Source of the DNA: Escherichia coli
Lineage (GTDB): Bacteria > Pseudomonadota > Gammaproteobacteria > Enterobacterales > Enterobacteriaceae
Assembly (NCBI RefSeq): GCF_046105845.1
Contig: NZ_CP151004.1
Reading direction: 5' to 3' (one strand)
Length of the DNA stretch: 64,000 bases
Shown here one piece after another: positions 4,863 to 43,230 of this stretch. Made by a program: the position numbers and the translations under genes. The notes beneath the pieces were generated by a model. It worked only from the letters and a program-made list of their open reading frames with translations, was not told the origin of the DNA and ran no database searches. Positions within the stretch are counted from its first letter, which is position 1. Every line of letters begins with the position of its first letter.

Positions 4863-4879
4863 CGTTTAACATTCATTGA
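4863..4879 (+). promoter_or_regulatory. Candidate PhoP box (cGTTTA-N5-cATTGA) at the -35 position of the mgrR promoter
   Basis: Direct-repeat-like hexamers read from sequence, second half degenerate; mgrR is a known PhoPQ-activated sRNA. Coordinates approximate. Confidence 0.3.
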
Positions 4880-4904
4880 GAAAACTGATGCTACTGTGTC
4901 AACG

Positions 4905-5002
4905 ATCCGTTATCAGTGCAGGAAAATGCCTGTTAGCGTAAAAGCAAAACACAAATCTATCCATGCAAGCATTCACCGCCGGTTTACTGGCGGTTTTTTT
5001 TC
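4905..5002 (+). ncRNA. mgrR: MgrR small RNA (PhoP-regulated, Hfq-dependent), ending at an intrinsic terminator
   Basis: Position between dgcZ and mgtS as in K-12. 3' end set by the hairpin plus T8 run at about 4976-5001; 5' end is inferred from the expected ~98 nt length and was not read from a clear -10 element. Confidence 0.4.
4976..5001 (+). terminator. Rho-independent terminator (ccgcc...ggcgg stem followed by TTTTTTTT)
   Basis: GC stem followed by a run of 8 T read directly from sequence. Confidence 0.7.
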
Positions 5003-5009
5003 GCCGTCA

Positions 5010-5049
5010 TAAAAATCAGGCCCCTTGTACACAACTGTAACAAGGGGCC
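5010..5049 (-). terminator. Rho-independent terminator for mgtS (10-bp perfect stem ggccccttgt / acaaggggcc, U-rich tail on the minus strand)
   Basis: Perfect inverted repeat; minus-strand RNA continues UGAUUUUUAUG. Lies 28 nt downstream of the mgtS stop. Confidence 0.65.
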
Positions 5050-5076
5050 GGTTAGGTGAGGGATTATCTCCGTTCA

Positions 5077-5172
5077 TTAGTCATCCCATTTGTGGCTGAA
5101 ATACGCGGCCAGAAAACCAGAAAATAAAATTATTCCCAGTACGGCCATAAAAACATTCATATTACCCAGCAT
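5077..5172 (-). CDS. mgtS: Small membrane protein MgtS (31 aa), PhoP-regulated regulator of MgtA stability
   Basis: Minus-strand translation is MLGNMNVFMAVLGIILFSGFLAAYFSHKWDD*, matching MgtS/YneM as I recall it; GGAGG Shine-Dalgarno 8 nt upstream. Not in the ORF track because it is under 60 aa. Confidence 0.85.
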   Translation of the reverse strand: MLGNMNVFMAVLGIILFSGFLAAYFSHKWDD

Positions 5173-6486: not shown

Positions 6487-6680
6487 TTGTCTGTCCGGCA
6501 GTGCGTTTCGTTATGTTTTGTTTTAGAGATGTAAAGAAATAGCATGGCAAAAATCCGAAGTATAGCGACTTATTTGCGCATTAATGCCGTCGTAAAGGGT
6601 GACTAACGAATCAACTGTTAAAGAAAAGTAAATTCAGCTAAGTTGATTGCTTACAAAAGATGAAATTCAGAGGCGGTAGA

Positions 6681-7580
6681 ATGTCGCGAAAAGATGGGGT
6701 GTTGGCGCTACTGGTAGTGGTCGTATGGGGGCTAAATTTTGTGGTCATCAAAGTGGGGCTTCATAACATGCCACCGCTGATGCTGGCCGGTTTGCGCTTT
6801 ATGCTGGTTGCTTTTCCGGCTATCTTTTTTGTCGCACGACCGAAAGTACCACTGAATTTGCTGCTGGGGTATGGATTAACCATCAGTTTTGCGCAGTTTG
6901 CTTTTCTTTTTTGTGCCATTAACTTCGGTATGCCTGCTGGTCTGGCTTCGTTGGTGTTACAGGCACAGGCGTTTTTTACTATCGTGCTTGGCGCGTTTAC
7001 TTTCGGTGAGCGACTGCATGGCAAACAATTGGCGGGGATCGCCTTAGCGATTTTTGGCGTACTGGTGTTAATCGAAGATAGTCTGAACGGTCAGCATGTG
7101 GCGATGCTCGGCTTTATGTTGACCCTGGCGGCAGCATTTAGTTGGGCGTGTGGCAACATCTTCAATAAAAAGATCATGTCGCACTCAACGCGTCCGGCGG
7201 TGATGTCGCTGGTAATCTGGAGCGCATTAATCCCAATCATTCCCTTCTTTGTTGCCTCGCTGATTCTCGATGGTTCCGCAACCATGATTCACAGTCTGGT
7301 TACTATCGATATGACCACCATCTTGTCTCTGATGTATCTGGCGTTTGTGGCGACAATTGTTGGTTATGGGATCTGGGGGACGTTACTGGGACGCTATGAA
7401 ACCTGGCGGGTTGCACCGTTATCGTTACTGGTGCCCGTAGTAGGACTGGCAAGTGCGGCACTATTGTTGGATGAACGCTTAACGGGTCTACAATTTTTCG
7501 GGGCGGTGCTCATTATGACCGGGCTGTATATCAATGTATTTGGCTTGCGGTGGCGTAAAGCGGTAAAGGTTAGAGGCTAA
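6681..7580 (+). CDS. eamA: Cysteine/O-acetylserine exporter (DMT/EamA family)
   Basis: ORF 6660..7580; conserved start MSRKDGVLALLVVVVWGLNF at 6681 gives 299 aa as in EamA/YdeD. Confidence 0.93.
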   Translation: MSRKDGVLALLVVVVWGLNFVVIKVGLHNMPPLMLAGLRFMLVAFPAIFFVARPKVPLNLLLGYGLTISFAQFAFLFCAINFGMPAGLASLVLQAQAFFTIVLGAFTFGERLHGKQLAGIALAIFGVLVLIEDSLNGQHVAMLGFMLTLAAAFSWACGNIFNKKIMSHSTRPAVMSLVIWSALIPIIPFFVASLILDGSATMIHSLVTIDMTTILSLMYLAFVATIVGYGIWGTLLGRYETWRVAPLSLLVPVVGLASAALLLDERLTGLQFFGAVLIMTGLYINVFGLRWRKAVKVRG

Positions 7581-7585
7581 ACCAT

Positions 7586-7629
7586 ACGCACAGAATGTGA
7601 TGTCAGCACTCTGTGCGTCTGCTTTTATC
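7586..7629 (+). terminator. eamA terminator: 9-bp stem (acgcacaga / tctgtgcgt) followed by a T-rich tract
   Basis: Hairpin plus gcttttat; the T-tract overlaps the stop codon of the convergent GntR-family gene (7625-7627). Confidence 0.55.
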
Positions 7630-8323
7630 GCGGGAAAAAGTACTTTACCTGGAACTCGAAAATATTGCTGTAAAGTAACGAATAATCCAGCGGAATAGAG
7701 TTACTATCCACAGCCTGGGTCTGAATTTTAAGTATGGGATCCCGTGGGCTGATCCGTAAAATACTGGCGATTTCTGGGGTAGGAAAAGTAGGGGAGAAAG
7801 TTTCAAAGGTGCCAATGATTTTGATCCCGCATTCGTTCTCAATATACGAAAATTTGGATTTTTGCATATGTGCTACGGTTAAATCAGGAAAACGTGCCAC
7901 TGACATCCACGTTTCTTCTAATTGTGCTGCATTATCCTCAATGAATCGCAGTCTCTTTATGTAATAAACCTGCTCACCAGTCACTAAATTCAGCTCAGTC
8001 GCAATAGGGGGAGAAGCATCCTGCACTTCAAATTTCATAATCTGACTTCCTGCCTCCTTGCCGCTTTTATGCGCAATTTCACTGAAGCTGTTCATGTGAT
8101 CAATGTGTGCAACAAAATTCTTTTTTTGAATGTATGTTCCTGAACCATGCTTTCTATGAATAACTCCTTCGCCTTCCAGCAAGGATAATGCCTTACGCAG
8201 GGTATTACGCGAAACATTATAACGAACAGCGAGTTCAGCTTCTGACGGCAACAAATCACCAACATGCCATGAATAGCCATTGATCTCGGATTTAAGTAAG
8301 CGGGCAATCTTTTGAAAAATCAC
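7625..8323 (-). CDS. GntR/HutC-family transcriptional regulator (N-terminal wHTH + UTRA effector domain)
   Basis: 232 aa; the segment LPSEAELAVRYNVSRNTLRKALSLLEGEGVIHRKHGSGTYI is a typical GntR HTH. Divergent from the PTS operon. Absent from K-12 by synteny (from memory). Confidence 0.85.
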   Translation of the reverse strand: MIFQKIARLLKSEINGYSWHVGDLLPSEAELAVRYNVSRNTLRKALSLLEGEGVIHRKHGSGTYIQKKNFVAHIDHMNSFSEIAHKSGKEAGSQIMKFEVQDASPPIATELNLVTGEQVYYIKRLRFIEDNAAQLEETWMSVARFPDLTVAHMQKSKFSYIENECGIKIIGTFETFSPTFPTPEIASILRISPRDPILKIQTQAVDSNSIPLDYSLLYSNIFEFQVKYFFPR

Positions 8324-8437
8324 TTTTGCACCTTTTAAGAGCCATTGAAAACAAGGGGTTGAGTCCTGATTGGTTTATCGTATGGCCGAGTCGTTTAATT
8401 ATTACCCTGATGTTGAACAACTTTATTGCTGTATTAC

Positions 8438-8520
8438 TGTGATCAATGTACCAGGACGTATAGCTACTGCGGGATATGATATTTACACAATGTAATCTGT
8501 TATATACCAGTAAGGGAAAA
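8438..8520. promoter_or_regulatory. Divergent promoter region with a CRP-like site (TGTGAtcaatgTACCA, ~8438-8453) and a near-palindromic HutC-type operator candidate (CTGTTATATACCAG, ~8507-8520) just upstream of the EIIB start
   Basis: Motifs read from sequence. Compared with CRP consensus TGTGA-N6-TCACA and with HutC-family dre-like palindromes (tGGTATAtACCa); both assignments are inference. Confidence 0.3.
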
Positions 8521-8521
8521 T

Positions 8522-8833
8522 ATGAAAAAGATATTGTTAGTTTGCGCTGCGGGCATGTCAACCAGTATGCTGGTTAAACGTATGATTGATCATGCTAACG
8601 CTATTTCACTTGAAGTTAATATTTCCGCATTGGCGATTGCAGAGGCTAAAGGGAAAATTAAAAATAACGAAGTTGACGTTGTTTTACTTGGCCCGCAAGT
8701 TCGCTTTCAGAAACCAGAGATTGAAGCTGTTGCACAGGGGAAAATGCCTGTAGCTGTTATCGAGATGAAAGACTATGGCACCATGAACGGACAGGCAGTT
8801 CTTGAATTTGCGATGAAACTACTGCAAGAGTAA
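8522..8833 (+). CDS. PTS EIIB component, lactose/cellobiose family
   Basis: 103 aa; MKKILLVCAAGMSTSMLVKRM carries the phospho-cysteine motif typical of Lac/Cel-family IIB. Confidence 0.9.
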   Translation: MKKILLVCAAGMSTSMLVKRMIDHANAISLEVNISALAIAEAKGKIKNNEVDVVLLGPQVRFQKPEIEAVAQGKMPVAVIEMKDYGTMNGQAVLEFAMKLLQE

Positions 8834-8947
8834 GAATCTAATATTATTAAACTATTACCTGAACTAACTTTTCACACATCATAAAATGGATATGGCATAC
8901 ATGCTTTATTGGGATGTATAAATATCCAGAACAGCAGGTATAAAAAA

Positions 8948-9819
8948 ATGGGATTAATGGCCTCATTCGAACGTGGAATGGAACGTTTTCTTGTTCCAGT
9001 TGCTATCAAGTTAAACTCACAAAAACATGTTGCAGCGGTGAGAGATGGATTCGTTTTTACGTTTCCAATTATTATGGCAAGTTCATTAATTATATTAATT
9101 AATTTTGCCATATTATCGCCAGACGGTTTTATTGCCGGATTACTGCATCTGAATAGCATTTTCCCCAACCTTGAAAAAGCACAAGCTATTTTTACTCCGG
9201 TAATGAATGGTTCTGTAAATATCATGTCAATTATGATTGCTTTCCTGGTCGCCAGGAATATGGCGATTAGCTATGAGCAAGATGATCTTTTATGCGGATT
9301 AACGGCAATAGGAGCATTTTTTATTGTTGGGCCGCTCAACACGGCACTACCTGGGGCGCGCCATATCCGATTACCTGGACTTCTATTAATGATGCATTCG
9401 CCAACTGCGGCGGTTCAGGTATGACGTTGGGGTTATTGTTGGCTATTTTTATCGCTTCTAAGCGTGCGGAATACCGTGATCTGGCAAAAATGTCATTTAT
9501 CCCCGGTATTTTCAATATCAATGAACCGATAATGTTCGGCCTTCCTATTGTACTTAACCCCATCATGATGGTGCCGTTTATTCTGGTTCCCATTGTTAAC
9601 TGTGCCATTGGTTACTTCTTTGTTTCGATGGAAATTATTCCACCGGTTGCTTATGCCGTGCCCTGGACTACGCCCGGACCTTTAATTGCTTTCCTCGGAA
9701 CCGGGGGAAACTGGCTGGCGTTACTGGTGGGTTTTTTATGTTTAGGTGTGGCGACAATGATCTATTTACCTTTTGTTATTGCCGCCAACAAGGTCAATAA
9801 CATGACAACTAACGGATAA
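8948..9819 (+). pseudogene. PTS EIIC component, lactose/cellobiose family, disrupted by an internal deletion with frame change
   Basis: Two overlapping ORFs in different frames (8909..9424 and 9292..9819). The first resembles an EIIC N-terminus (...[29 protein letters not shown]...), the second an EIIC C-terminus (...CGGSGMTLGLLLAIFIASKRAEY...IYLPFVIAANK). Combined coding potential is about 290 aa against ~430-450 aa for this family. Confidence 0.7.
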
Positions 9820-9840
9820 TCCCATTTACACAGGAAGGAG

Positions 9841-10158
9841 ATGTTGATGTTTGCAGATGAAGAACTTGTTATGGAGTTACTGGTCAACGCAGGACAGGCT
9901 CGTTCTGATGCGATGGAAGCCATACGTTGTGCCGGGCAAAAAGACTGGCAGGGCGCAACTCAGCTAATGGCCAGTTCTGAATGCGCCTGTCTTCAGGCGC
10001 ATAAGATTCAGACCGCGTTAATTAGTCAGGATGAAGGCTGTGGCAAAATAGAAGTTAATTTAATTCTGGTTCATGCACAGGATCATTTGATGAATGCAAT
10101 ATTATGCCAGGATTTAGCCAGGGAAATTATTTCATTAAGAAAAGAGCTCCATGCCTGA
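9841..10158 (+). CDS. PTS EIIA component, lactose/cellobiose family
   Basis: 105-aa ORF with helical EIIA-Lac/Cel-like sequence (MELLVNAGQARSDAMEAIRCA...). The start may be the second ATG at 9847, which has better spacing from GGAGG. Confidence 0.85.
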   Translation: MLMFADEELVMELLVNAGQARSDAMEAIRCAGQKDWQGATQLMASSECACLQAHKIQTALISQDEGCGKIEVNLILVHAQDHLMNAILCQDLAREIISLRKELHA

Positions 10159-10210
10159 TTTTTTCCTCCAGTGCGATAGCTGGAGGAAATTATTACACTC
10201 TTAAGGATAA

Positions 10211-13349
<3,139 letters not shown>

Positions 13350-13376
13350 GACTTCAGGAAGATATTACGGAGATAT

Positions 13377-13400
13377 CAGGCTCTGTGATCAGAGCCTGAC
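13377..13400. terminator. Hairpin (tcaggctctg / cagagcctga, 10-bp stem, 4-nt loop) between the convergent GH1 gene and marB
   Basis: Perfect inverted repeat read from sequence; no long T-tract. Coordinates approximate. Confidence 0.5.
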
Positions 13401-13405
13401 AATAA

Positions 13406-13624
13406 CTACATAGCGTGTTGATTATAATAGGGCACGCCGAGCGCATCCGACTTATCACTGCCAGTACCCATGTGATTTAAATCAAACGGTGGTTGTTCCT
13501 GCGATGGGGGAACAACCACGACATTGGCACAGGAAGTAACAACCTGCTGCGTGGTTTGTTCCGCAATGCCCTGCGTGGAAAAGAGAATAAACGCAGCTGC
13601 TATTGCGGATAAAAGTGGTTTCAT
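13406..13624 (-). CDS. marB: Multiple antibiotic resistance protein MarB (periplasmic)
   Basis: 72 aa, MKPLLSAIAAAFILFSTQGIA signal peptide; matches MarB. Confidence 0.92.
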   Translation of the reverse strand: MKPLLSAIAAAFILFSTQGIAEQTTQQVVTSCANVVVVPPSQEQPPFDLNHMGTGSDKSDALGVPYYNQHAM

Positions 13625-41641: not shown

Positions 41642-41908
41642 ATGATGAGCTTTCAGAAGATCTATAGCCCAACGCAATTAGCGAATGCAATGAAACTGGT
41701 TCGTCAGCAAAATGGCTGGACGCAGAGCGAGCTGGCGAAAAAAATCGGTATTAAGCAGGCGACAATTTCCAATTTCGAAAACAACCCTGACAATACCACG
41801 CTCACGACATTTTTTAAGATTTTACAGTCGCTTGAACTCTCAATGACGCTATGCGACACGAAAAATGCCTCGCCAGAATCAACAGAACAGCAAGATCTGG
41901 AGTGGTAA
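41642..41908 (+). CDS. hipB: Antitoxin HipB (Cro/C1-type HTH)
   Basis: ORF 41624..41908; conserved start MMSFQKIYSPTQLANAMKLVRQQNGWTQSELAKKIG at 41642 (88 aa). Confidence 0.93.
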   Translation: MMSFQKIYSPTQLANAMKLVRQQNGWTQSELAKKIGIKQATISNFENNPDNTTLTTFFKILQSLELSMTLCDTKNASPESTEQQDLEW

Positions 41909-43230
41909 TGCCTAAACTTGTCACTTGGATGAACAACCAGCGGGTAGGCGAGTTAACGAAGTTAGCCAATGGCGCGCACACCTTTAAGTATGCACCGGAG
42001 TGGTTAGCTAACCGTTATGCCAGACCGTTGTCACTTTCGCTGCCATTGCAGAGGGGGAATATCACCTCTGATGCCGTATTTAACTTCTTCGATAACCTGT
42101 TACCCGATAGCCCGATTGTACGTGACCGGATCGTTAAACGTTATCATGCCAAATCCAGACAACCGTTTGATTTATTGTCAGAAATAGGGCGAGACAGCGT
42201 TGGTGCCGTGACGTTAATACCCGAAGACGAAACCGTAACGCATCCGATAATGGCATGGGAAAAGCTTACTGAAGCCAGACTTGAAGAAGTATTAACGGCT
42301 TATAAAGCAGATATCCCTCTGGGCATGATTAGAGAAGAAAATGACTTTCGCATCTCGGTTGCTGGCGCGCAGGAGAAGACAGCGCTGCTCAGAATAGGCA
42401 ATGACTGGTGCATTCCGAAAGGAATAACGCCGACGACGCACATCATTAAATTACCGATTGGCGAAATCAGGCAGCCCAATGCGACGCTCGATCTCAGCCA
42501 AAGCGTTGATAATGAGTATTACTGTCTGCTGCTGGCGAAAGAACTTGGGTTGAATGTTCCGGACGCAGAAATCATTAAAGCGGGAAGGGTGCGCGCGTTA
42601 GCGGTCGAACGTTTTGACAGGCGTTGGAATGCTGAGCGAACGGTTTTACTTCGCTTGCCACAGGAGGATATGTGTCAGACATTCGGTTTACCTTTATCGG
42701 TGAAATATGAATCAGATGGAGGCCCAGGCATCGCGCGGATCATGGCTTTTTTGATGGGGTCCAGCGAGGCGCTGAAAGATCGCTATGATTTTATGAAGTT
42801 TCAGGTGTTCCAGTGGTTGATTGGCGCAACGGATGGCCATGCAAAAAACTTCTCCGTATTTATTCAGGCTGGCGGCAGTTATCGACTCACGCCATTTTAC
42901 GACATCATTTCAGCATTTCCGGTATTGGGTGGCGCAGGAATACACATCAGCGATCTCAAACTGGCAATGGGGCTTAACGCATCCAAAGGCAAAAAAACGG
43001 CAATCGATAAAATTTATCCGCGACATTTTCTGGCGACAGCAAAGGTGCTGAAATTTCCGGAAGTGCAGATGCATGAAATCCTGAGTGACTTTGCCAGAAT
43101 GATTCCGGCAGCACTGGATAACGTGAAGACTTCATTACCGACAGATTTTCCGGAGAACGTGGTGACGGCAGTTGAAACAAATGTGTTGAGGTTGCACCGT
43201 CGGTTAAGCCGAGAATACGGTATTAAGTAA
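41908..43230 (+). CDS. hipA: Serine/threonine kinase toxin HipA
   Basis: ORF 41851..43230; conserved start MPKLVTWMNNQRVGELTKLANG at 41908 (440 aa), overlapping the hipB stop by 1 nt. Gly22 is wild-type; the autophosphorylation-site context RISVAGAQEKTAL is present. Confidence 0.93.
   Translation: MPKLVTWMNNQRVGELTKLANGAHTFKYAPEWLANRYARPLSLSLPLQRGNITSDAVFNFFDNLLPDSPIVRDRIVKRYHAKSRQPFDLLSEIGRDSVGAVTLIPEDETVTHPIMAWEKLTEARLEEVLTAYKADIPLGMIREENDFRISVAGAQEKTALLRIGNDWCIPKGITPTTHIIKLPIGEIRQPNATLDLSQSVDNEYYCLLLAKELGLNVPDAEIIKAGRVRALAVERFDRRWNAERTVLLRLPQEDMCQTFGLPLSVKYESDGGPGIARIMAFLMGSSEALKDRYDFMKFQVFQWLIGATDGHAKNFSVFIQAGGSYRLTPFYDIISAFPVLGGAGIHISDLKLAMGLNASKGKKTAIDKIYPRHFLATAKVLKFPEVQMHEILSDFARMIPAALDNVKTSLPTDFPENVVTAVETNVLRLHRRLSREYGIK

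Follow-up and report, generated by a model that had tools for sequence, protein, structure and literature searches.

In a 64,000-nt stretch of an Escherichia coli chromosome (NCBI RefSeq assembly GCF_046105845.1, contig NZ_CP151004.1; below, the window), the gene for the membrane component EIIC of a phosphotransferase system (PTS) is divided between two reading frames, which raises the question of whether the locus encodes a permease that works in two pieces, suffers from an error of sequencing or assembly, or carries a decayed gene. The evidence collected here indicates that the locus is very probably a true EIIC pseudogene of an accessory bgc-type PTS beta-glucoside/cellobiose operon, brought about by a recent, single, illegitimate deletion of 451 bp in the course of neutral decay.

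The accessory operon between eamA and marB

The window is an E. coli-type chromosome region in which the gene order is eamA, GntR/UTRA regulator, PTS IIB, broken IIC, IIA, LamB-family porin, GH1 6-phospho-beta-glucosidase, marB, marA, and marR (Table 1). The six genes from the GntR regulator to the 6-phospho-beta-glucosidase form an accessory island, which has a GC content of 42.6%, compared with 46.7% for the whole window, and which would measure about 6.29 kb if undamaged. In SCU-102, a strain without the island, eamA directly adjoins marB. The IIB-IIC-IIA segment occurs in 2513 of the 5426 complete E. coli genomes searched.

Table 1. Positions in the window of eamA, the accessory island, its genes, and the parts of the EIIC pseudogene
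Feature	Position	Strand	Evidence or remark
eamA	6681-7580		followed by the island genes in window order
Accessory island between eamA and marB	7568..13403	.	boundaries by blastn
GntR/UTRA-family regulator (bgcR-like), divergent, intact, 232 aa	7625..8323	-	99.1% identity, full length
PTS EIIB (Lac/Cel type), intact, 103 aa	8522..8833	+	100% identity
EIIC pseudogene, native N-terminal part, codons 1-127	8948..9328	+	tblastn; TIGR00410 positions 1-110
Deletion junction; nt 382-832 (residues 128-277) missing, 451 bp; microhomology one T	9328	+	alignment to intact loci
31 aberrant, out-of-frame residues at the end of the N-terminal ORF, TGA 9422-9424	9329..9424	+	translation; gene calls on identical Logan contig
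EIIC pseudogene, native C-terminal part, codons 278-440 and stop, other frame	9329..9819	+	tblastn; TIGR00410 positions 278-420
PTS EIIA (Lac/Cel type), intact, 103 aa	9847..10158	+	profile search and tblastn
LamB-family carbohydrate porin, second pseudogene	10214..11885	+	2-bp deletion at ~11748
GH1 6-phospho-beta-glucosidase, intact, 479 aa	11910..13349	+	NF007154, 1032 bits vs cut-off 624

The bgc operon of extraintestinal E. coli (strain i484; CFT073 c1955-c1960), the subject of work by Neelakanta, Sankar, and Schnetz in 2009 (Appl Environ Microbiol 75:2284), reportedly includes a porin named BgcH and is said to be silent until a promoter mutation arises. The window shares with the bgc operon a divergent GntR-type regulator followed by PTS IIB, IIC, IIA, a porin, and a phospho-beta-glucosidase, and this gene set and order agree with those described for the bgc beta-glucoside/cellobiose operon in PMC3585215, which also summarizes the need of this operon type for an activating mutation before it is expressed. 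For CFT073, c1955-c1960 are listed in PMC2831201 as an accessory cluster of six genes, "PTS system, cellobiose specific", with a patchy distribution. The window differs from the bgc operon in that its IIC lacks 451 bp and its porin is frameshifted. On gene order and secondary citation, which are what the assignment uses, the window operon appears to match the bgc type.

The bgl, asc, and chb systems of E. coli resemble the window operon in their PTS-dependent beta-glucoside uptake, in having a GH1 phospho-beta-glucosidase, and in being dispensable in the laboratory, whereas they differ from it in permease family and architecture, in their regulators, and in their chromosomal sites. The bgl and asc permeases are fused IIBCA/IIBC proteins of the Glc family.

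Two further features of the window lie outside the operon. A match to the Rfam family STnc560, an Hfq-binding sRNA, is found at positions 4870-5083 on the plus strand (282 bits). This known enterobacterial sRNA locus neighbours the small mgtS/mgtT genes, to which it is antisense, and lies downstream of dgcZ. Positions 41642-43230 hold hipB together with a hipA-like ORF of full length (listed as 459 aa); at the same place, the reference strain SCU-102 carries hipA in truncated form and the remnant of an ISNCY transposase.

A deletion of 451 bp divides the EIIC gene

A preliminary description of the locus, made from the sequence alone, had reported a Lac/Cel-family EIIC split into two frames, with about 130 nt of overlap. 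The two ORFs, 8909/8948..9424 in frame 2 and 9292..9819 in frame 1, do both match TIGR00410, and they overlap by 133 nt. The overlap is confined to the ORFs, as the homologous segments themselves merely abut. For whole Lac/Cel-family EIIC proteins (TIGR00410 / PF02378), the curated TIGR00410 cut-off is 236 bits; the intact orthologue of 440 aa scores 338.3 bits over positions 1-420, which agrees with the family named at the outset. The N-terminal fragment covers positions 1-110 (68.2 bits, E 6.6e-19) and the C-terminal fragment positions 278-420 (168.6 bits, E 2.2e-49), so that neither reaches the cut-off or spans the full profile. In place of a single uninterrupted EIIC ORF of about 420-450 aa, the locus has two ORFs in frames 2 and 1, and this split is real and far beyond chance.

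A tblastn search with the intact 440-aa orthologue as the query places residues 1-127 at positions 8948-9328 in frame 2 and residues 278-440 at positions 9328-9816 in frame 1. The native residues left therefore number 127 + 163 = 290 of 440, and 150 (residues 128-277) are gone, as the first estimate of about 290 aa, some 150 short, had anticipated. A simple frameshift or sequencing error, in which the two ORFs together would make up a complete EIIC, is ruled out, since these 150 codons are truly absent. Descent from a regular EIIC gene is indicated by the DNA on both sides of the deletion, which shares 98.7-100% identity with intact genes of the same island between eamA and marB.

The blastn comparison with intact loci shows a single gap of exactly 451 bp (150 codons and 1 nt), giving a precise value to the internal deletion of about 450 bp with a frame change that had been suspected. 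With the intact locus of strain 7/2 (L001) as the blastn reference, window positions 6501-9328 correspond to L001 2002-4829 and window positions 9328-13500 to L001 5280-9454. The deletion begins directly after codon 127 and finishes one base into codon 278, and at the join, window position 9328, the residues GAFFIV run into AAQHGTTWGAPYPITW. The join had been placed at ~9355/9357, after ...IVGPLNTAL, which has to be corrected by about 27 nt in the upstream direction: the stretch GPLNTAL.../GPLNTALPGARHIRLPGLLLMMHSPTAAVQV is out-of-frame read-through terminating at the TGA, and the native C-terminal part begins 9 residues ahead of APYPITW.

Within 50 nt of the deletion ends, no direct word is longer than the 9-mer CGCCATATC, and no inverted word near them exceeds 5 nt. 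Slippage between direct repeats was considered and rejected, as the junction shares only a single T and the use of CGCCATATC would yield a deletion of 477 bp. The one shared nucleotide and the unused CGCCATATC repeat thus argue for illegitimate joining, which is what the 451-bp deletion looks like from its sequence. Junctions with only 1 nt of microhomology are less usual than repeat-mediated slippage.

The proposed course of events is that one illegitimate deletion, whose ends share 1 nt and are not flanked by a repeat, took out codons 128-277 and changed the frame. A ribosome beginning at the native start would then add 31 aberrant residues to 127 native ones before reaching the stop at 9422-9424, and the last 163 codons would be stranded in another frame.

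Age of the deletion and state of the other genes

Two Logan assemblies, of ERR13115083 (L003) and SRR12605517 (L004), are almost the same as the window over the length compared, with 2 mismatches in 21.1 kb for L003 and 1 mismatch in 12.7 kb for L004 (99.98-100% identity). Both keep a full-length EIIC, and the 451 bp are the sole structural difference from the window. These close relatives provide an intact orthologue at the same site, as expected for a unitary pseudogene, and their near-identity to the window argues for a very recent deletion that is restricted to one clone. The segment that measures 1701 bp in the window is 2151-2152 bp long in 29 of 30 sampled E. coli records. A 44-nt probe spanning the junction found no match in the 5426 complete E. 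coli genomes, and the 31-nt exact junction pattern found none in the GTDB representative genomes.

The porin gene carries a lesion of its own, shifting the frame at codon 513, so that the product has 530 aa rather than 557 and its C-terminal ...AEVWW is lost. Both L003 and L004 have exactly the window's porin allele alongside their intact EIIC, and therefore the porin broke first and the EIIC second. The EIIC deletion would accordingly be a very recent event in a clone whose operon had already been damaged by the porin frameshift.

The regulator, IIB, IIA, and glucosidase genes of the operon are all full length. Outside EIIC and the porin, all 41 of the other reference genes tested (window 31-50557) are unbroken, and no repeats of ≥200 nt were found within the window. 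A background of genome-wide gene decay, or of the IS-rich Shigella-like kind, finds no support in these two observations, which show the decay to be local to the operon.

Window positions 13400-38000 (24.6 kb) reach a best identity of only 98.7% among the 5426 complete RefSeq E. coli genomes, and sequence near-identical to the window is found in three public read-set assemblies. The lineage of the window seems to be absent from the complete-genome set.

Lesions in other strains and the possibility of selection

The 132-aa C-terminal ORF starting at 9421 is on record on at least 24 contigs. Among the loci read from these contigs (L007-L016), representing other public assemblies, the same EIIC gene shows at least seven other independent inactivating lesions. 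They comprise 1-nt deletions at nt 809 (L007) and nt 875 (L009), 1-nt insertions at nt 799 (L011) and nt 917 (L008, L013, and L014), stop codons at codon 278 (L015) and codon 294 (L010), and a deletion of 86 bp at nt 743-828 in a metagenomic E. coli contig (L016). The IIA, porin, and glucosidase genes of L008, L013, and L014 are broken too, and this spread of lesions across the operon genes fits relaxed selection on a dispensable operon.

That the same gene has been struck repeatedly in other strains could also be expected if the deletion had been selected, for example as an escape from a toxic sugar phosphate or from a phage or colicin using the system, rather than having arisen by neutral decay. 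We regard this as unlikely, however, because the porin of the operon was already inactive in the ancestor, because the lesions of L008, L013, and L014 extend over all operon genes in the way that relaxed selection predicts, and because an operon of this type is described as needing an activating mutation for its expression (summarized in PMC3585215). Neutral decay of a dispensable and normally silent operon would be the best reading of the deletion.

The right endpoint of the 451-bp deletion and that of the 86-bp deletion in L016 (L016 ~1500) lie 3 nt apart, and both fall inside CTCTCCTGGGCCGC, a stretch that carries a Dcm site, CCTGG, and is located at window ~9322-9335 when counted in intact coordinates. 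It is very unlikely that CTCTCCTGGGCCGC represents a recurrent deletion hotspot, and the coincidence of the endpoints, which involves two events only, may well be due to chance. If CTCTCCTGGGCCGC were such a hotspot, this would suggest that the decay of the EIIC gene is driven by a break or nick specific to that site, perhaps connected with Dcm/Vsr.

Presence of the deletion in separate assemblies

Only two recorded contigs encode exactly the 158-aa product of the first ORF, one being the NCBI chromosome and the other belonging to the Logan assembly of SRR28309099, which has the same junction and matches the window at 100% identity along 19,424 bp. Since the reads of SRR28309099 may stem from the same isolate, they confirm the assembly rather than providing a second biological sample. 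So narrow a distribution of the allele is what would be seen if the genome had an intact EIIC and the 451 bp had been dropped during assembly, but such an artefact is extremely improbable. The two assemblies come from different pipelines and share the junction, which is thus not an assembly slip; the deletion ends have only 1 nt in common, so that there is no repeat to cause a collapse; and a contig built from k-mers requires reads that contain the junction. At the level of assemblies, the lesion is accordingly found in the DNA and not in one assembly only.

Consequence for the permease

The intact orthologue aligns with ChbC of Bacillus cereus (PDB ID 3QNQ) over residues 9-428 (E 3.6e-58), and the GIHG and NINE motifs are common to both proteins. 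In the alignment, the GIHG histidine (His255) corresponds to ChbC His250, and the NINE glutamate (Glu343) to ChbC Glu334; the two ChbC residues are reportedly located at the sugar site, according to work by Cao et al. in 2011. In contrast to ChbC, the window gene is without the stretch aligning to about ChbC residues 113-269, including His250, and of the two conserved residues it retains the glutamate, on the C-terminal fragment, and has lost the histidine. A Kyte-Doolittle analysis places three strong hydrophobic segments, at residues 150-168, 191-209, and 236-254, in the deleted part. From the loss of these segments and of the GIHG histidine we infer that a working permease is excluded, and sugar uptake through the operon would be abolished.

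At positions 9421-9424, an ATGA motif lets the TGA of the frameshifted N-terminal ORF overlap with a native-frame ATG (Met309), and gene callers therefore predict the 132-aa C-terminal "EIIC" ORF. An exact look-up of the 175-aa ORF (9292-9816) found no record, since 9421 is the start that gene callers choose for the C-terminal ORF. The same ATGA arrangement is present in L007 and L009, where other lesions place the upstream ORF in the frame that ends at this TGA, and so the arrangement is a product of the sequence rather than of selection. The 132-aa piece from the ATG at 9421 could in principle be produced.

The stop/start overlap, the predicted C-terminal ORF with its start at 9421, and the NINE glutamate retained on it might be taken to mean that the two pieces, as separate polypeptides, keep some transport or regulatory activity together or singly, but this has a probability close to nil, given the 150 missing residues with their hydrophobic segments and GIHG histidine, the recurrence of ATGA in other frameshifted strains, and the normal single gene of the sister strains.

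Implications for annotation and operon decay

The divided EIIC gene is an ordinary case of gene decay, a pseudogene within a dispensable operon that is itself decaying. The right annotation is a pseudogene with an internal deletion and a frameshift, and not two "PTS EIIC" genes; beyond annotation, the finding has little importance. Uptake of beta-glucosides through the operon is predicted to be impossible in this strain, and the sequence likewise predicts no growth by way of this operon on cellobiose, arbutin, or salicin at low temperature, even with an activated promoter. The locus offers a small example of stepwise decay in one clone, with the porin being lost first and the permease second. 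Erosion in several lineages is described for bgl (PMC2646131), and the many independent lesions of the EIIC gene in other strains add to the view that selection on such cryptic sugar operons is weak in E. coli.
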